Shown: in pieces, positions 13,791 through 50,600 of the stretch
How positions within the stretch are numbered: position 1 is the stretch's first letter
Layout: each line of letters begins with the position of its first letter
Source of the DNA: Octopus sinensis
Lineage: Eukaryota
Assembly: GCF_006345805.1 (NCBI RefSeq)
Contig: NC_043026.1
Span: 2,480,001 to 2,544,000 of the forward strand
Length of the DNA stretch: 64,000 nucleotides
Reading direction: 5' to 3'
Program-made: the position numbers and the translations under genes
Notes under the pieces: model-generated
What the model was told of the DNA's origin: nothing
The model's database searches: none
The model's input: only the letters and a program-made list of their open reading frames with translations

Positions 13791-14519
13791 ATATATATAT
13801 ATATAGGATATAGGAAAAAGCTCTTTCTCAAGTCACTTAACTCATAAGGGCCGGTTTCCTGAATTCCTTAGTGCATATATTCCCCCACTGGAAAGGACAC
13901 TGGTCGGTCACAATCTTAATTTGCCAGCTGAATAGACTGGAACAATATGAAAGGAAGTGTCTTGCTCAAGAGCGCAATGCATTGCTTGACCTTGGAATTG
14001 GAACCACAATCTAATGATCACGAGTCCAACAAACTAACCATTAAACCACATGCCTCAAGGTTCCCATGCCAAGTCTTAATCAGTAAGCTCACTTCAGGGA
14101 AGCAAAAGACCATGGGCTTGCCCTCCTTGAAGATACAAGGACCAACTCAAAGCAACCCTGAAAGCCACTGGAATTGAACCTAAATCATTTGAAACACAAG
14201 CCTGAGACCATACCAAGTGGCGGTGTTTCATCACCATTGGAACCACAAACTTCAAAGCCACCAGAAGAGAAAAAGAAGAAATCAAAGGACAGGAGAGAAA
14301 GGCTCGAAAAAAACATCAACCTCATCCTCCATCAACATTGCCATGCAGTCAAAGCCATCGATTCTTCTAAGCAAGAATTGGTTGACTGAGTCATCAATGG
14401 CATCACCATAAAAGGAAGCGTTCAGAAAAGAAGAAAATAATTCTCAGATACAAGATAAAGCCACCACGGTCAATTACATATATATACACACACACAAATA
14501 TATATATATATATATGAAG

Positions 14520-14805
14520 TGTTTAATGCCACCTAAACATGGCTGTGCCTTAGGAACTGACGTTACTGTTTACTTTTCTATATATTGTGAGCTATATTTA
14601 GCAGACGAGTATGAGCAAGGATGACCATAAGGAGGTTGAAACCATACAGTTTGATGGTCTTGAAGCTAGGATAGTAGAGAGTTCTCTCCCTGTTTTCAAT
14701 ATAAATCGAGTGCAGAGTGCAGTGTGTAACCAGCTGGAGGAGGGGTTCAAATGGCAGTATCATCAGTTCCTAAGGAACAGCCGTGTTTAGGGGGCATTAA
14801 ACACG
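14520..14805. mobile_element. Small inverted pLTR-like element, structurally related to the 21730 and 35650 families
   Basis: 14520-14568 is inverted relative to 14755-14804. Carries the CCAGCUGG...GGGGUU...CAGUA motif and a hammerhead remnant with a deleted 5' core (gaccat...GAAAC...atggtc). Confidence 0.6.
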
Positions 14806-15061
14806 ACTCATCAGTGTAAAAACTGCTTTTGTATCTTACAGAGATTTTCTTAAGAAGCTAGTTTGCTTTTTTGTGTATATATGTATATACATGTATGTAT
14901 GTATGTATGTATACATATATATATGTATGTGTGTGTGTGTGTATGTAGGCATGCATGTATGTATTATGTATGTGTGTGTGTGTGTGTGTGTATACATACA
15001 TACATACATGCATGCATACATATGTATCTTATTTTTTAACATATATATATGCATACATATA

Positions 15062-15105
<44 letters not shown>

Positions 15106-15132
15106 ATAATATGTTACATTACTCGGTAGTCA

Positions 15133-15195
15133 AGATAAAACTTTGAGTTTCAGATGCCGAAGTGGAAATCCACAACACCATCTCTTCGGTTATCT
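15133..15195 (-). ncRNA. Hammerhead-like motif in the inverted 5' pLTR, CCGAAGA core
   Basis: Reverse-complement copy of 17292-17354. Confidence 0.7.
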
Positions 15196-17291
15196 GGCTA
15201 TTTGAAAACGCTATGAAAAAATACCGTTAAATAATTAAATAATTAATCCCAGGATTAAAGGCTTGGAAGATTTCGAAGCGGACCTGCTGAAAATTATGAG
15301 CAAAATAAAATTTCGTAAGTCTTTTAACGATTTCCAACATAAATTGAAAAAAGATATTAAACATAGAAAAAGCTCCAAGAAAAAAGCACTTTTTTGGATA
15401 AAACCAAGAACTTATACCAGGTAGATAACAGCAAATACACACAACTCTTACACAACAGCATCATTAATCATTAATAATTATACTAAGGCTAGGGCACAGA
15501 TATATAACGAAATTAATAATGAAGCTAGCGTCATCGCCGCTAAACTTAAATTAGATGAAAAAAATAGAAGCCCTCCCCCAAAAAGAGGCCTTTATTACTA
15601 TTAAAGATCACAAAGAAAACTTCCTTTCCAACCCTAAATGTAGGCTTATCAACCCAGCCAAGTCAGAACTAGGGATTATTAGCAAAGAAATTTTAGATAA
15701 AATAAATGCGAAAATTAAGAACGCTACTAGGCTAGTACAATGGTCCAATAGTATAGAAGTCGTAGACTGGTTTAAAGCTATTAAGAATAAGAAAAAAGCG
15801 AGGTTTACACAATTCGATATTGTTGATTTTTATGCCTCTATCTCTAAAGAACTGCTAGATAAAGCCCTCATCTTCGCTAGCGACTTCATAGAAATTAGTA
15901 CCAATGATAAGGACATAATCTACCATGCTATAAAGATATTACTTTTCAGTAAGAACGCAAAGTGGGTAAAAAACACCGACACAGAGGGCGCTTTCGATGT
16001 GAGCATGGGTTCATATGATGGGGCAGGCATCTGTGATCTAATTGGACTTTTTCTCCTAGATACCTTAGGTAAGACATTCCCTAACGTACATTTCGCCATC
16101 TACAAAGATGATGCCCTCGGACTTAGTATAACTATAGATACTAACCTGACAGTTGTCAATTTCTTAGACGTTTCCTTAGATCTTAATAAGAATATTTATA
16201 AGCCTTATAGGAAGCCCAATGATAGACTTAGTTATATTAATGTAGGTTCATGCCATCCCCCTATAGTATTCAAAAATTTAGTTAAAAATATTAGTAAGAG
16301 GATTTCTAGCCTCTCCTCTGATGAGGACATCTTCAATAGCATTGCCCAAGTTTATTATAAGGCTTTAAAAGATAGAGGTCTTAGCGAAAAAATAAAATAT
16401 ACACCTATCACCAGCCCAACAATAAGGAAAAGGAATAATAGAAATAGGAAGGTCATCTGGTTTACGCCCCCTTACTCACCCGAGGTGGCCTTCAATATAG
16501 GTAAATATTTCCTAGCACTGATAGATAGACATTTTCCAGTTAACCATGCTTATAGGAAACTCTTCAATAGACACAATTTAAAAACCAATTTTAAAAACAT
16601 AATCAAACATAACATACAAAAAACACAACAAGAAAACAGCTGTTCATGCAGGAATAAAGAATTGTGCCTGCTAAATGGAGCTTGCATGTCCAAGACCATC
16701 ATATATGAAGCTACCGTAAACTCTATAATGACTAAAGACACCGTTTCGACGAAGAAATACGTGGGCCTTACAGAGGGTAATTTCAAGGCCAGGTTCAATA
16801 ACCACACTTTGAGCTTTAGGCACTGGAACAAAAGAAAAGCGACACAATTATCTAATCATATTTGGTCTTTAAGAGATAAAGGTGTCGATTATAACATACA
16901 ATGGAAGATTTTGGCCAGATGTAAGCCCTATACTAACGGCAGCGGAAGGTGCGGTCTATGCGACATGGAGAGATGGCTTATCTGGAAAAGCAGCTTAGAC
17001 CCTACTACATGTCTAAATACAAGGACAGAGCTTTTCGGATCATGCCCACATGTGACTAAATTTCTGTTACGTTTTTGGTCCCCTAAAGAAAACAGATAGA
17101 ACATGCTTTTTATGTTATGTCCCAAGAAGAATTTATATATTTTTATATATTTTTATATATTTTTTATGTATTTTTATATAATTTTTATGACGAAAAATGC
17201 GAGCAATGTATAAGTACGCAGGCAAGCAGAGTTATAACAGAGTAATTTCCCTTTATTTAACGGTATTTTTTCATAGCGTTTTCAAATAGCC

Positions 17292-17354
17292 AGATAACCG
17301 AAGAGATGGTGTTGTGGATTTCCACTTCGGCATCTGAAACTCAGAGTTTTATCT
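17292..17354 (+). ncRNA. Type I hammerhead-like motif in the PLE 3' pLTR, CCGAAGA core
   Basis: agauaa CCGAAGA gaug...cauc u GAAAC ucaga GUU uuaucu. Stem I agauaa/uuaucu. Confidence 0.72.
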
Positions 17355-17681
17355 TGACTACCGAGTAATGTAACATATTATTGTATAGATAAATTTCCTC
17401 TATTTACATAATATTGAGGTCTCTTTCTTTCTTTTGTTATCTTACCGTTTTACCAATATATATATATATATGTATATATATATATGTAATATACATATGC
17501 ACATATACACACATACATTATTACATCTATACATGCATACACACACACAAACACACATATACAAACACATACACATATATATGCATGTATATATATATAT
17601 AATATATATATATATATATAATATATATATATATATAATATACATACATATACACACACATATCTATGTATGTATATACAT

Positions 17682-21690: not shown

Positions 21691-21727
<37 letters not shown>

Positions 21728-21729
21728 CA

Positions 21730-22293
21730 ATAAAAAATCTCTGAACGAGATGTAAACAGTAACTGCACGACAGTGTGAGGTATACTAGCCATCTCAATAT
21801 GGCTAACCACTAAGGGTCGGTGTTACTGTAGCTTTTAGCCCCAGGAGAACATCGTCTCCAGCTGGCTTTAGGCACACTTTCTGTGCCCTTATGGTATTTG
21901 CAAAGGGAACTCATCCCTCTCTCGTAAACCTAAGTGATACACAAGGACTGCAGTTTCTAGGTATTTGCCTGTCTTCGGCATACGGCAATCACCGGTTTTC
22001 GATGAAGGGAGTCCATTTGCAAATCCTTATATATCGTTTTTCCAGTAACTTTTCGTCACTGATTTCAAAAACCGGTGATTGCCGTACGTTGACAAGAGGC
22101 AAATACCCAGAAACTGCAGTCCATGCGTATCACTTAGGTTGACGAGGGAAGGATGACCTCCCTTTGCAAATACCATAAGGGCACAGAAAGTGTGCCAAAA
22201 GCCAGCCAGAGACGATGATCTCCTGGGGCTAAAAGCTACAGTAACACCCACCCTTAGTGGTTAGCCATATTGAGATGGCAAGTATACCTTACA
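21730..22293. mobile_element. Inverted pair of PLE-type pseudo-LTRs carrying hammerheads (non-coding)
   Basis: Arms 21774-21999 and 22067-22293 are diverged reverse complements, with a hammerhead motif in each arm and (TA)n flanks. Confidence 0.8.
21934..21992 (-). ncRNA. Type I hammerhead-like motif, CCGAAGA core (decayed mirror copy at 22075-22133, +)
   Basis: gugau..cguaug CCGAAGA c agg caaaua ccu a GAAAC ugca GUC cuugugu aucac. Palindromic ACUGCAGU stem III. Confidence 0.72.
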
Positions 22294-24099: not shown

Positions 24100-24175
24100 G
24101 CGGTACATATGTTTCGGGCCTTATTAGACAGATTTATAACAATGCATAAGTATGTCTGTGGCCTTCTTCAGCCGC
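24100..24175 (-). ncRNA. Type I hammerhead ribozyme motif (mirror copy, same sense as the PTER pre-mRNA)
   Basis: Reverse complement of 24578-24655 with the core intact. Confidence 0.85.
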
Positions 24176-24577
24176 GCACAACAACTTCTTCCACAAGGAC
24201 ATGTGTTACATCAAGAATTCTTGGTTGGGGATGCAAATCCTCTCATTCGCGTACGACATAATGCGGCAACAGCATAGAAGTGAAGCGTCCATCTCGTTCT
24301 TCTCTCAATGTAGAATGAGGAAATTTGGATGTTGAAGTAATGTAAATAAATTAATAAATAAATTTATTTACATTAATTTATTAATTTATTTACATAAATT
24401 AATTTATTTACATTACTTCAACATCCAAATTTCCTCATTCTACATTGAGAGAAGAACGAGATGGACGCTTCACTTCTATGCTGTTGCCGCATTATGTCGT
24501 ACGCGAATGAGAGGATTTGCATCCCCAACCAAGAATTCTTGATGTAACACATGTCCTTGTGGAAGAAGTTGTTGTGC

Positions 24578-24655
24578 GCGGCTGAAGAAGGCCACAGACA
24601 TACATTATGCATTGTTATAAATCTGTCTAATAAAGGCCCGAAACATATGTACCGC
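24578..24655 (+). ncRNA. Type I hammerhead ribozyme motif, canonical core
   Basis: gcgg CUGAAGA a-ggcc-acaga...ucugu..ggcc-c GAAAC auau GUA ccgc. Stem I gcgg/ccgc, palindromic minimal stem III, predicted cleavage after 24651. Confidence 0.85.
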
Positions 24656-35649: not shown

Positions 35650-36515
35650 GGAGAAAAACAACTTATTTTAAATCTCTGAGTGAGAGATTATACAGTAACA
35701 GTACCAAACAGTAATACATATATATAAGCCAACTGAATGTGGCAGTCCTATAAAGGACAGTGTTACTGTTGTTATAGCCCCAGGAAAACCTCTTTTCTAG
35801 CTGGCTATCAACAGACAGTTTGTGTCTGTATAGCATTTGTGAGGGAGGTCATCGCTCCCATCTCTAGCCTTATGTGATACTCACAGCCCCAGGTTTCTAG
35901 GTGCTTACCTGTCCTCAGTGTAAGACAATCACAGGCTAGTCACAAAAGCTTTCTCCACTCACAAATGCTAGATATTTTTTAAGCAACAAACAGTCGCTGT
36001 TCTTGTAGAGAGAAAAACAACTTGTTTTAAATCTTAGAATGAGAGATATATAGTAACAGTACCAAATAGTAATGTTTATATCCTAACAGAATGTGGCAGT
36101 CCTATAAAGGACGGTGTTACTATTGTTATAGCCCCAGGAAAACATCAGTAACATCGTCCTCTATAGGACTGCCACATTCTGTTGGCATATAAGCATTACT
36201 ATTCGGTACTGCTACAGTATATCTCTCTCAAGTTGTTTTTCTCTCTACAAGTTCAGCGACTGTGTGTCACTTAGAAAATAGATAACATTTGTGAGTGGAG
36301 AAAGTTTTTGTCACTCGCCTGTGATTGCCTCACAATGAAACCCAGGGCTGTGAGTATCATGTAAGGCTAGAGATAGGAGCAATGACCTCCCTTGTGAATG
36401 CTATACGGACACAAACTGTGTGTCAACAGCCAGCTGGAAAAGAGGTTTTCCTGGGGCTATGACAACAGTAACAACGTCCTTTATAGGACTGCCACATTCT
36501 GTTGGCATATAAAGC
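35650..36515. mobile_element. Tandem plus inverted array of PLE-type pseudo-LTR copies
   Basis: Unit 35650-36005, partial direct copy 36008-36145, then inverted copies 36146-36250 and 36250-36512. Shares motifs with the 21730-22293 family. Confidence 0.8.
35874..35932 (-). ncRNA. Hammerhead-like motif with non-canonical cleavage triplet (GGC)
   Basis: gugau..cuuaca CUGAGGA c aggu aagc accu a GAAAC cugg GGC ugugag u aucac. Same architecture as 21934-21992. Confidence 0.6.
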
Positions 36516-45515: not shown

Positions 45516-46015
45516 TTATTTTATTTCACTTTGCGGCATGTACTGAAGATCGAATCAGTATTATTTCTGTAAGTATAAACTAAAGGAGAAATGGAGGTGC
45601 AAAACAGATAACAACTGATGGCTTTATTAAGCTACATCAGACCTCTTTCCTCCACGCTAAATATTAGCATGGAGTTAACAGTGCATAGGAATGTCTGGAA
45701 ATTAGTAGCTAATAGGGAACCTATTTCGTTACTAGCAACTCGATATAAACAAGAGTGCATTTTGCACCAAAATCCAGCTTGAGCGTTTCTCTCACGTTAT
45801 CTGCCGCAGTATAGTTTGTTCTAACAGAACATCAATATCTAAGCAGAAATAAATATTATTTCTCAGTACAAATACTGCCTCTGTCGCTTATACACACACA
45901 CACATATATATATATATAGGTACTTAACTCATATAATATACATACATACATAACTATATATATATACATATACATATATGTGTGTGTGTGTGTGTATTTG
46001 TATTTATGTGTGTAT

Positions 46016-46314: not shown

Positions 46315-46709
46315 GATCTTCCAATGGATGTTATCGTTGACACCTTACTGGATAATTTGGTTGTTTTTCTTTTTTCCCAGTGTCTGAAACTGAAGGTGTG
46401 ATTGTTGAACCTGGCTTTGAAATTCCCCTCTGTGAGACCCACATATTTATTTGATGAAACAATGTCCTTAGTGGTTGTAGAGACTACAGTGGCTTCATAA
46501 ATGATGGTCTCGGACATGCAGGCTCCATTTTCGCGGGCACAAATTTTTATCCCTGCATGAACAGCTGGTGGTCATTGTTGTTTTTATGTGTTGTGTGCAA
46601 TTATATTTTTAAAATTAGTAATTGAGCTAAAACTAATTTTTAAGTTATGCCTATTAAAGAGCTTTCTGTAATTATGATTGATTGGAAAATGCCTATCTAT
46701 AAGTGATAA
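46315..46709 (-). mobile_element. Penelope-like fragment related to the 15555 element
   Basis: LSLIDRHFPINHNYRKLFNRHNLK and MSETIIYEATV..KYVGLTEGNFKARFNNHTFSFRHW are nearly identical to segments of ORF 15555-17099. Confidence 0.9.
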
Positions 46710-48078
46710 CGGTTGAAAAAAGAACAAAATAATTAAAAATGACAGAGAATACTGGAAGTATTTAATATTTAGCTTCAATCACACTCTGACATCTTCGACT
46801 GCATGGGGAAATTAAATTTTCAATTTCTTGCTGTGTGATCTTATTCCATTCTTCCCGAAGGGCATTCCATAATTGCTCGGTTATTGTAGGATTTCTGGCA
46901 TTCGAACGTTCTCCTAGAATATTCCACACATTTTTAATAGAATTGAGATCTGGGCTTTGAGCAGACCAATCCATAGCAATAACTTTTTCAGCCTTGAGGA
47001 AGTTCATGACCACCTTAGCCTTGTGACATGGGGCATTGTCCTGCATGAATATGGGTGGTCGCTTAGTTGAATTTCTTAGCACAGGCAAGACATGATCTTT
47101 TACAAGTTGTTTATAAACTCCTGCGTTTACCTTTCCATGTAATCGCACCAAAGGGCCCACAACATCTCCAGATATCATCCCCCAAACCATGACACTTCCT
47201 CCACCAAATTTAACACTAGTCTTAAGGCATTTAGGCGACAATTTTTCACCTACTTTTCTACGAACGTACCTTTTCCCATCTGAGCCAAATTACATAAACT
47301 TAGATTCATCACTGAAATGCACCGTTTGCCATTTTTCTTGAAACCACAACACATGTTCGGTTGCAAAGGTAAGGCAACACTTTTTATTCTTGGAGCTGAT
47401 CAGTGGCTACACTGCAGGTGCTCTTGCTTGTAGGTCATGTTCAACTAAACAACGAGACACAGTTTTTCGAGATAAAGTTTTCTTCAATACAATGCTCATT
47501 TTCCGAGAAACAGCAGCAGCAGTTTTAAATCTGTCCTTTTTAACCAACTTTACCATAGCACGATCTTCTCTCTTGGTCGTTTTTCTTGGCCTACCTGTAG
47601 ACTTTCTTGCTTCACACGAATACCATGAACAACATTTTTTGACTTGTTAACAATCTTTGCAATAGACCCAATACTTAAATTATCCTTCTTTCGAAGCTTA
47701 ATAATCTGCTGACGAATTAGTAACGGAGTAAGTGGCATTATATTAAAGTGCACTGCAGATATTCTTACTAATGTTTAGTAAACGAACCGTCACGTAAACA
47801 AATTCAAAACATTTGAGTTCGCCGGTTAAATATACTAAAACACGGAGTAAAAGCAACCGTTCTGATCATTTTGGCTGCCATGGGTTTTGCAGTAAATCAC
47901 TAAATCATCCATAACTTTTGTATTATCCTCTCAAATTACACCAAAATCGCAGACAATAACAAATAATGTCGTATTTATTGTCTGTGAAAATTATAGAAGA
48001 TAAAACAACTTTGATAAGAAATTATACTTACTTTTCTGATGAAAACAATGCCGTTCTGAACATTTTGACCGTAACTGT
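46710..48078 (-). mobile_element. Tc1-family DNA transposon, degraded, 3' end truncated
   Basis: KFGGGSVMVWG, FMQDNAPCH and WSAQSPDLNSIKNVW motifs. Terminus CAGT/TA at 48078, with an internal repeat of the terminal motif at about 47857-47880 (IR/DR-like). Confidence 0.92.
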
Positions 48079-48115: not shown

Positions 48116-49494
48116 GCCATGCTGAAGCACCGCCTCGAAAGGGTTAAGTCGAACAAATTGAGCTCAGTACTTTTTTAAGCCTGGTACATATTCTCTCAGT
48201 CTCTTTTGCCGAACCGCTAAGCCCGGTTTCACCCGGTCGGTTTGGATGATGTGGTTGTAAAACCTGCTCTGTGTAAGCATTCGACTTGCTTGGGCACGCT
48301 TACGTTAAAAAATCAATTTTAGAATGACTTTTTGTTTTGTCAAAACGCTAAAAATAACTGACCAACAAAAAACAACCAAGATTCACCGAAATCAAAAAAA
48401 TAAACCCAAATACTAAGCGAACAAAGATGCAAAACAACAGAAACAAACATAAAAAAATAAAACAAAAATTAAAAGAAATAAAAAAATAAGTAAAGAAATC
48501 TTTTAAATTTTCAAAGGTCAAAAATCAACAAAAAAAATAATAACTGAAAAACATTAAATACCGCAAACTCAATGCGAAATATTACACAAAATTTAAAACG
48601 AAAAGAAAAAAACCCATTTGAAACTGAAAACCAAATAACTGAAACACTACAAAGGAAAACTTCACAAAAAATCCCCCCCCACACACACACACATTCACAT
48701 ACCCCCCTTTTACATACACACATATATTCACACAGAGTTGAAACGCTGTTTGATTTATTTTTCCAGCGTACAATTTTCATCCTCCCACTACCAAGTGTCA
48801 CATCACCCCTTCCTTCCTTATTCATCTATCACTCCTTCCTTTCTCATTCATAAACGCAAGAGTATTATTATAGTAGATTATCTCAGTAACCATGGGAGCT
48901 ATGAAAAAATACAAAGCCCAGCAACACCACCTGATCTTTCTACACATCGATGAGTAATTTTTCGCGCAATTCCACCCAGCCGTTTGACCGTGAATCCCAA
49001 GACAAGAAAGAATCGCCCATGTCAAATTATATGTATAGATTTTTAAACTATCATACAAAATACATCCACATCATATCTCAGGCCGTTTGACCCAGTGCAG
49101 GTTTCCTTACAGGTATTGTGCTTTTGTTCACATCGGTGTTGTTACTAATATCAGCCATGATCGTGCTAGCGGAATAGCACATGGTGTAAGATATATTTCT
49201 TTCAATTCGATCTGAACACCCTCATTTATAACTGAAGAAATAAGTCAGTTACTGACTTGGGCAGGAAGAATTGGCATAATCGTAGAAGAAAACGTTCAAA
49301 GTGGCAATTCGAACATTTCCTTTCATCATCATCATTGTTCGACCGTGGTCGAGACAATGGAATTTACTATGTTACGCCAGACCTCACGGTCCATCATAGC
49401 ATTACGGAGGTCCTGTTGCTGGATGCCTGTATCCCTGGAGATTACATCAGGGTAGGAGAGGGTGCACCCTCTGGTATCGCAAGCAATTGCTTCT

Positions 49495-50600
49495 GACAGA
49501 GCGACTTCTCAAACATCTTTCCAAGACATTTAATCAGATTTTCCTCTGTTGATGGTATGGCTTCTCCTTGCACTTGTAGCTTAATTTTGTTTGTTACTTT
49601 ACCTCCTCTGGTTACCATACCCCTATATTTGGGAGGCTTAAACTTCTTTCTAACGAATATTACCATGTGTTCAAATGAGGTCAGCACCATTTCTGCCTCC
49701 ACATGGGTTGTAGTTGTTACCGTGATATCATCCATGAAACCCCTTATTGGCTGCTGACAGCTGCCTGATTCCATTGTTGGTCCTTGGCCTTCATTTTCAG
49801 CAGCTGACACGAGGAGATTCATAGCCATGATGAAAAGAATGAGGGAGATTGTGCAACCAGTTATGATTCCTTTCTCAAGGTCTTGCCACTGACTTGTGAA
49901 GTGGGCTGTTCTGAAACATAACTCGATGCCTCCAAAGTGATTGCTGATTATTCCCTCAACAGGTGAGGAATATGGTAACAGTCAAGGGCTGCATATATGA
50001 GGCTGTGAGGAATTGATCCACATGCATTTTCCAGATCCAGCCAAACCACTGTCATGTCACCTTTACTTCTTTTGGCCTCCCGAATCAGCTGGTTGTGTTC
50101 CAGACAGCCCGAGAAACCCGAGACCCTCACCTTTCTGGATAGAGGTGTTTATATACTCATTGTATGAGGTCACCCTTTTTTGGTCAGTACAGAAGGTTTT
50201 TTCCCTCAACACTCAGGAAGGAGAATGGTCCTGAATTTGTGAATGGCTGATGAGTTTTCTTCCTTTGGCAGCACAAAACTTCCTTTCGGTGGAATGATAC
50301 CATTTGTTCAGATCTTTCAGAATAGTGTCCACAGCCTCTGAAGGAGCCATGGGCTTTTCTTGTATACTTTATAAGGTACACCACTTGGACAGGAGCTGAT
50401 CCTGATCTGGCCCCTTTCACAACTACTCGTCCCACTTCTTTCCAGAATGGACAACTGACGTTGAACTCATTTCCTGGTATTTCAGCTCTACAGACTTTTG
50501 GGTTAACATTAGGAGCTTGATTCTGAGGTTATGGGTAGATCTCTCCCCCTCCACCCAGAAAAGCTTCTACCTCTCTCTGGAGCTGGTCCATTTCCCTGAT
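49495..50600 (-). mobile_element. Degraded non-LTR RT fragment (Hero/R2-group-like)
   Basis: GFSGCLEH, VVWLDLENACGSIPH, GIITGCTISLILF, GFMDDITVTT and FKPPK.R motifs, with frameshifts. Confidence 0.82.

Follow-up and report, generated by a model that had tools for sequence, protein, structure and literature searches.

The window analysed here, a 64,000-nt stretch of the Octopus sinensis genome (contig NC_043026.1, positions 2,480,001 to 2,544,000), contained three hammerhead-bearing elements designated E1, E2 and E3, a decayed fourth copy of their 3' module, and a Penelope-like element with a reverse transcriptase (RT) reading frame. The features are as follows (positions in the window; strand in brackets):

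21726-22293 (no strand): element E1 (family F1), an inverted pair of ~355-nt non-coding units with (TA)n flanks
21946-21978 (-): type I hammerhead core of the E1 left arm, U4C variant, with palindromic helix III tetraloop
21896-22024 (-): long stem around the E1 hammerhead, its base formed by 22016-22024 with 21896-21904
21871-21888 (-): hairpin P0 of E1, immediately 5' of the module
21837-21868 (-): P1/P2 hairpin of E1, with closing stem, AG/G bulge, C-G, U·U, G-C, G-C core and covarying upper stem
21822-21829 (-): 5' strand of the long-range helix P3 of E1 (the CAGUA stretch)
21788-21821 (-): hairpins P4 (variable) and P5 (GCCA-N8-UGGC) of E1
21766-21777 (-): tetraloop hairpin P5b of E1, with site 1 at its stem-loop boundary
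21756-21763 (-): 3' strand of P3 of E1, within the tail
21726-21751 (-): terminal hairpin P6 of E1 (21737-21751) and the insertion end site 2 at 21726
22089-22293 (+): E1 right arm, tailless, its hammerhead (22089-22121) decayed and its module (22199-22293) truncated at site 1
35666-35918 (-): left arm of E2 (family F2), with full module (35666-35808) and hammerhead (35886-35918) with mutated cleavage triplet
36025-36514: further E2 piece, comprising internal partial copies at 36025-36147 (-) and 36139-36229 (+) and the right-arm module at 36426-36514 (+), cut near site 1
14518-14851 (+): E3 (family F3), with an inverted 5'-truncated piece (14518-14570, -), hammerhead (14602-14659) and module plus tail (14726-14851)
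45807-45890 (+): fourth copy, weak and decayed, extending from P3 to the tail only (E 0.007, 18.8 bits)
15110-17457: Hydra-clade Penelope-like element, with an internally deleted 514-aa frame at 15555-17099

The arms of E1 (229 nt) were 90% complementary, the left one terminating at site 2 and the right one at site 1; E2 and E3 form nests of a similar sort. The region 14500-36500 recurred at 98-100% identity on the same contig (G000:C30:2597000-2617000 and 2032000), reflecting either a recent segmental duplication or a duplication in the assembly. The window also possessed a perfect inverted repeat whose 206-nt arms flank a spacer of 42 nt (24150-24603) and, all on the minus strand, relics of two further Hydra families, a DDE transposase and an RT fragment (46320-46709, 1296-1523, 46765-47289 and 49445-49981).

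A preliminary description of the window had proposed that E1, E2 and E3 share a conserved, covarying RNA module 3' of the hammerhead. All five stretches that it named were present at their positions and on their strands, and a covariance model built from other copies scored them at 46.9-132.3 bits, while the next background match reached 18.8 bits. The long stem described as enclosing the hammerhead also proved real. The module extends further than had been thought, since ~55 nt at its 3' side, comprising the tetraloop hairpin, one strand of P3 and the terminal hairpin, had been missed.

In the revised fold P1 is followed by a bulge, the core, the upper stem and an A-rich linker; P3 then encloses P4, P5 and P5b, and P6 terminates the structure. 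The core of C-G, U·U, G-C and G-C was invariant in all 12 families and lies beside the bulge, which is AG in 11 families and UAU in F12 and faces a G. The AGCU motif, held to be invariant and unpaired, was thus kept in 11 of 12 families (UAUCU in F12), nor is all of it unpaired, since its C forms a pair with G and its U lies opposite U. This bulged core with its U·U pair is the probable protein contact or hinge. The covariation previously noticed in the closing stem is real, with G-C in eight and A-U in three of 12 family majorities, as is that of the inner stem, where four positions showed changes on both sides; the copy at 14728 has suffered an 11-nt deletion in the inner stem compared with its family.

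The main correction concerns CAGUA, which had been considered unpaired and invariant. It forms the 5' strand of P3 and pairs with the tail of the element ~60 nt downstream (in E1, 21822-21829 with 21756-21763 on the minus strand), and it varies together with its partner, as UAGUA/UACUA in F4 and F10 and as CAGCA/UGCUG in F5. Among the family majorities 95 of 108 P3 cells were Watson-Crick, compared with 82.0±3.1 when partners were swapped (1 of 10,000), and in 19 natural copies P3 was 94.7% paired, with five of seven pairs changed on both sides. When the module was folded alone, the central pair of P3 had a probability of at least 0.8 in nine of 12 family majorities and of 0.02-0.29 in the other three; in the natural full F6 unit its predicted probability was 0.93-0.95. 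The remaining hairpins were more uneven. P4, the first hairpin of the earlier fold, is variable, being absent from F4 and F7 and weak in F6 and F12. P5b is a 4-bp tetraloop hairpin with 39 of 48 cells paired and F4 off register by one. P5, the second hairpin, is conserved in sequence as GCCA-N8-UGGC, as is P6 in its own sequence, but as no two-sided change occurred in either among the family majorities, the pairing of P5 is not demonstrated by covariation; conservation and folding support both.

Covariation was scored on a MAFFT alignment of 19 family-level natural copies (44-90% identity). Paired cells made up 87.2%, as against 80.4±0.7 in shuffled and 31-46% in slid controls, and 18 of 36 pairs showed two-sided changes, as against 11.1±1.9 in shuffled alignments (0 of 500) and 4-13 in slid ones; the fold has an advantage over the slid control, having been derived from the very sequences on which it was scored. 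Because relatives share changes, switches were also counted on a tree inferred from the unpaired columns, which gave at least 41 between Watson-Crick pairs, 13 of them in P3. RNAalifold, applied to the first MAFFT alignment, recovered P1/P2 alone, because the other helices were out of register there. In all 15 family pairs compared, conservation was higher in the module than in the hammerhead region preceding it, with a peak exactly around the tail.

It might be argued that the structure is selected in single-stranded cDNA, or that it is passively inherited, with template switching inside inverted copies preserving its pairing. It is indeed common for copies to be inverted or to fold back at the CCAGCTGG palindrome, and helix energy is similar on either strand in several families. 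We regard this as improbable in view of the double substitutions, which are found among families at 44-90% identity and extend to the long-range P3. Moreover, G·U cells outnumbered A·C cells (34 versus 21), and this excess, together with the invariant U·U pair, favours a structure on the ribozyme-sense strand.

Another possibility is that CCAGCUGG, a perfect palindrome of 8 nt in 11 of 12 family majorities, serves as a self-complementary dimerisation signal joining two RNAs for dimeric hammerhead cleavage or for a dimeric RT. The palindromic helix III loops of seven families, discussed below, make the use of dimers likely. Dimerisation through this site is nevertheless very unlikely, as the palindrome is buried within P1/P2, and F12, abundant among the first matches of the 7,982-match pattern described below, lacks it yet keeps the C-G/U·U/G-C core.

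The module forms the 3' end of hammerhead-bearing non-coding elements that comprise at least 12 families and thousands of copies in the genome. First-look searches of the whole 2.72-Gb genome gave 2,509 candidates for E1, 2,403 for E2 and 296 for E3. A first pattern derived from the module matched 606 times, with three matches for the reversed-pattern control, and a second one 7,982 times (overlapping duplicates included), with nine for its control. At 23 of 25 distinct loci, taken from the first 30 matches of the second pattern, the covariance model confirmed the module, three of the 23 being in its training set. From 137 distinct full-length modules we defined 12 families of 3-21 copies each; 50 clusters were merged or dropped as decayed singletons, and seven singletons were retained in the alignment. 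At tandem loci the unit measured 353-358 nt (~355), with 358 nt in F6 and a spacing of 353 nt at L383/L384. No recurring open reading frame was found in these units, which are thus non-coding, and a search by eye for internal Pol III boxes gave none that was convincing. Words of F1 were present in the datasets of four organisms. Among viral contigs the module was found in none of 120 by profile, and the covariance model gave at best 17 bits on 80 of them, i.e. chance matches; in metagenome contigs a tight pattern had no matches and a loose one reached at best 21 bits by covariance model on 80 of 118. These contig searches say nothing about other animals.

Among 256 copies with 190 nt of upstream sequence, 88 retained the GAAAC-loop-GUC motif of the hammerhead, and in 68 of these the motif precedes the module by 75-80 nt; no such motif was recovered in F5. 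The cores of motif-bearing copies were canonical or one-base variants, mostly U4C in F1 (25 of 36) and C3U in F6 (7 of 7), and none of the five hammerheads in the window had a fully canonical core, all being variant or damaged. Non-canonical cores occur in young and successful families, namely U4C in F1 and in the Penelope-like family Hydra-1, C3U in F6 and U3-A8 in S117. The variant cores suggest that such changes are tolerated or that cleavage is assisted by protein. Helix III, which is longer in F3, F4 and F7, ends in palindromic tetraloops that differ across seven families: UGCA in F1 (34 of 36), UAUA in F6 (7 of 7), and CUAG, UCGA, CAUG and CGCG elsewhere. Palindromic loops at this position typify hammerheads in which cleavage takes place in the dimer (Cervera and de la Pena 2014, PMC4209133), so dimeric hammerheads are probably used here.

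The ends of the insertions proved to be informative. Mapped against natural tandem references, 75 copies of F1, F2 and F6 ended 36 times at site 1 and 21 times at site 2, while 13 read through into a tandem unit and five ended earlier; not one ended within the 38 nt between the two sites. For F1, retrieved with a query that did not require the tail, the numbers were 23, 11, 5 and 1 (40 copies); for F6 they were 4, 3, 1 and 1 and for F2 9, 7, 7 and 3, samples partly chosen by tail-containing queries (in F2 the query included the tail). Site 1 falls within the P3 junction, at the point where the stem of P5b meets its loop; site 2 is located beyond P6, at +45 to +49 in F1 and F6 and at +45 to +60 in F2. 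The ends are blurred by A+T microhomology of 1-3 nt and scatter from -2 to +4. Clustering at site 1 was also seen, with more noise, in F3, F5, F7, F8, F12 and F13. Thus 57 of 75 copies ended at one of two fixed points bounding an optional tail, as is characteristic of Penelope-like elements.

These ends also bear on the suggestion in the preliminary description that the module might be a second catalytic domain, which found no support. The invariant internal loop, the conserved unpaired A and G and the U·U pair, as well as the location in a ribozyme-bearing element, would suit a second self-cleaving ribozyme. The ends, though, are spread over several positions and do not mark a single bond, and read-through occurred in 13 of 75 copies; furthermore, conserved unpaired bases are few and no pseudoknot partner was seen. 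Rfam matched no ribozyme family, which weighs little because the hammerheads were missed by Rfam as well. Altogether a second ribozyme appears extremely unlikely.

A parallel is offered by the Poseidon element of Anolis carolinensis, whose genomic tail is bounded by two internal sites, both used as starts by the RT and one of them located in a stem-loop (Frangieh 2024, PMC11167929). In the experiments reported there a minimal RNA around the start sites was needed and sufficient, and hammerhead cleavage was dispensable in vitro. Because the ends of the Poseidon tail are RT starts (PMC11167929), we infer by analogy that sites 1 and 2 are RT start sites framed by the module. The likeness goes further: in Poseidon and other Penelope-like elements an optional tail, delimited by two insertion ends, lies downstream of a hammerhead, copies are inverted and 5'-truncated, targets are A+T-rich and a start site lies in a stem-loop (PMC11167929, PMC8557442). 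In contrast to those elements, as these papers present them, ours lack an open reading frame and have a tail of ~48-60 nt compared with 30-40, and their tail pairs back to form a junction.

The class of elements to which the module belongs is already known. Inverted 5'-truncated copies, partial tandems and A+T-rich or (TA)n targets occurred among the insertions; among the 21 F1 loci processed, four had target-site duplications of 10-16 bp and seven had (TA)n flanks, as raw counts without a chance control. Partial tandems, inverted 5'-truncated copies and A+T-rich targets make up the Penelope-like pattern (Craig 2021, PMC8557442). We therefore assign the elements, with a hammerhead in each unit, to the non-autonomous Penelope-like elements and, among these, to the non-LTR retrozymes. 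Like the non-LTR retrozymes of animals they have non-coding units of 350-360 nt, a type I hammerhead and tandem copies (PMC7229834; bioRxiv 10.64898/2026.07.22.740005), and they agree with that group in carrying one type I hammerhead per unit and a non-coding unit of ~170-400 nt that is found in tandem. Penelope-like elements have been proposed to mobilise animal non-LTR retrozymes (PMC7229834; Li, Clavereau and Pollet, bioRxiv 10.64898/2026.07.22.740005). The differences are that most copies in the octopus are scattered monomers, partial tandems or inverted pairs and have two fixed ends, long tandem arrays being absent from the loci examined; that several young families have variant cores (U4C, C3U), unlike animal non-LTR retrozymes; and that they possess a conserved, covarying 3' domain, of which the consulted sections of these two papers describe no counterpart in non-LTR retrozymes.

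No Rfam family reached its gathering threshold over the module in the window (E<=1) or at eight loci (E<=10), in keeping with the preliminary description, which could match it to no RNA family; sub-threshold miRNA and snoRNA matches came from microsatellites and inverted repeats. Our literature search returned no description of the domain, though Repbase or Dfam entries or the supplements of papers could hold these families, and in passages of a paper on O. vulgaris repeats the words hammerhead and ribozyme do not occur (PMC13282606). The view that this is an undescribed, covarying cis-acting structure is upheld: the domain is a real, undescribed structured RNA within a known kind of element.

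What does the fold do? Of the functions first proposed, RT recognition or priming fits best, since the fold has two fixed points at which insertions end. Our explanation, which we consider probable rather than established, is that the module serves as an RNA platform, bringing in a Penelope-type RT in trans and determining where that enzyme starts. Tandem transcripts would be cut by hammerheads, probably as dimers, and the cut RNAs might be circularised, as retrozymes suggest. A Penelope-type RT-endonuclease supplied in trans would then bind the module, nick A+T-rich DNA and, from one or other of the internal sites 1 and 2, begin target-primed reverse transcription. Site 1 would be kept in position by P3 together with the tail, and template jumps would yield tandem and inverted copies. 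Holding site 1 in this way would explain why the tail is conserved even though about half of the insertions lack it: an insertion at site 1 loses half of P3, so that only tandem or site-2 copies could regenerate the whole fold, which would place the tail under selection.

Alternatively, the fold may serve the RNA before reverse transcription, through binding of host proteins, stability, ligation of circles, export or restraint of the hammerhead, its loops attracting the ends merely by being accessible. This is rather unlikely in our opinion, but it would agree with the lack of the module in the autonomous elements checked and with the biology of animal retrozymes, which are abundant circles ligated by host enzymes and in which something beyond self-pairing has been argued to block the hammerhead (Cervera and de la Pena 2020, PMC7229834). 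Accessibility, on the other hand, does not account for ends that use a particular 4-nt loop and a single position beyond the final hairpin and ignore the larger loops of P2, P4 and P5, nor does such a function account for a conservation peak that coincides with the tail.

A functional likeness to the RT-recruiting platform that we favour is found in the eel LINE UnaL2, whose tail stem contains a bulge and a U-U mismatch, both required for retrotransposition (Nomura 2006, PMC1636434). Both systems have a 3'-terminal RNA stem with these features that is shared by non-autonomous elements (SINEs in the eel) and lies near the start of reverse transcription (PMC1636434). UnaL2 is an L2-clade LINE with a single hairpin, short terminal repeats and a known autonomous partner (PMC1636434), whereas the octopus elements possess a multi-helix domain and internal start sites. 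No terminal repeat unit of the L2/UnaL2 type was present at their ends, and the likeness is functional only.

The main weakness of the RT-platform explanation is the missing partner. Non-autonomous elements usually share their 3' end with an autonomous partner. The preliminary description envisaged a cognate Penelope-like RT, a role that the Hydra-clade element of the window does not appear to fill. Its reading frame was recognised by CxCX5C, CxxC and CxH motifs. The element is very young (21,322 candidates in the genome), has its own hammerhead with a U4C core, carries an inverted 5' copy and ends at two 3' positions separated by ~70 nt; the module is absent from its 3' end, where there is a ~70-nt tail of different sequence. 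This tail can pair with sequence upstream of its hammerhead, and Hydra-2 has the same tail hairpin layout. The labels Hydra, Neptune-like and Poseidon are presumptive clade assignments from motifs.

The module was likewise absent from the 3' ends of the Neptune-like family, Hydra-1, Hydra-2, a second GIY-YIG family and the Poseidon loci, which were partly covered as they extend to the 3' end in some cases only, and the 3' ends of the autonomous families sampled share no sequence with the short elements. Queries with a GIY-YIG family, the Hydra endonuclease of the window, the second GIY-YIG family, a divergent Hydra and the Poseidon RT motif returned 150 loci, in searches limited to the 150 top-scoring of thousands of candidates. 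Module matches in these (DNA profile) were isolated insertions of the known short families or unrelated single matches, and the covariance model, run on 100 of these and related loci, likewise gave no partner-linked module. No recurring open reading frame lay upstream of the module in 209 copies with at least 1 kb of upstream sequence; a co-oriented Penelope-like fragment occurred at five of them, three as separate insertions (the other two being L094 and L287). One apparent partner was a Helitron-like element with a captured piece. Since the searches scored no more than the top 150 among thousands of candidates, there may be further families and the partner may lie outside the sample, or the short elements may exploit an RT whose 3' end they do not have in common.

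Several observations were made along the way. A non-autonomous Helitron-like element (L461-L468, L021) has spread a captured F1 mini-insertion, composed of an inverted tail piece and a P3-to-site-1 piece flanked by a 10-bp duplication, with 27 exact pattern matches. Four further Penelope-like families were found (L364-L380, L105-L130, L281-L310 and L431-L460): Hydra-2 (727 aa), which is young, as is a Neptune-like family (781 aa) with a U3-A8 hammerhead; a GIY-YIG family in which no hammerhead was seen and whose 3' UTR is rich in microsatellites; and a Poseidon family that has decayed. The intact Hydra-1 protein has 717 aa. Another inverted non-coding element (L587:1290-1910) has ends resembling site 2 of F1 and is without the module.

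The results give a name to a large repeat class in the octopus genome, whose exact-pattern copies number several thousand and may be listed in annotation as unknown or as SINEs. They also address the route by which animal retrozymes return to DNA and the choice of internal starts by RTs of the Penelope type, which form the sister group of telomerase; a covariation-supported structure with a dozen natural variants and two mapped putative start points makes both questions testable. It is conceivable, though doubtful, that the ribozyme circles have evolved a multi-helix RNA adaptor, absent from autonomous Penelope-like elements, which captures a telomerase-related RT in trans and positions the template in the manner of telomerase RNA; if true, this would be a portable, protein-free 'copy me from here' tag. 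If it is portable, the domain would provide a compact tag for targeted reverse transcription. As insertions end at two set positions in the fold, the latter probably shows a borrowed reverse transcriptase its binding site and the place to begin copying.
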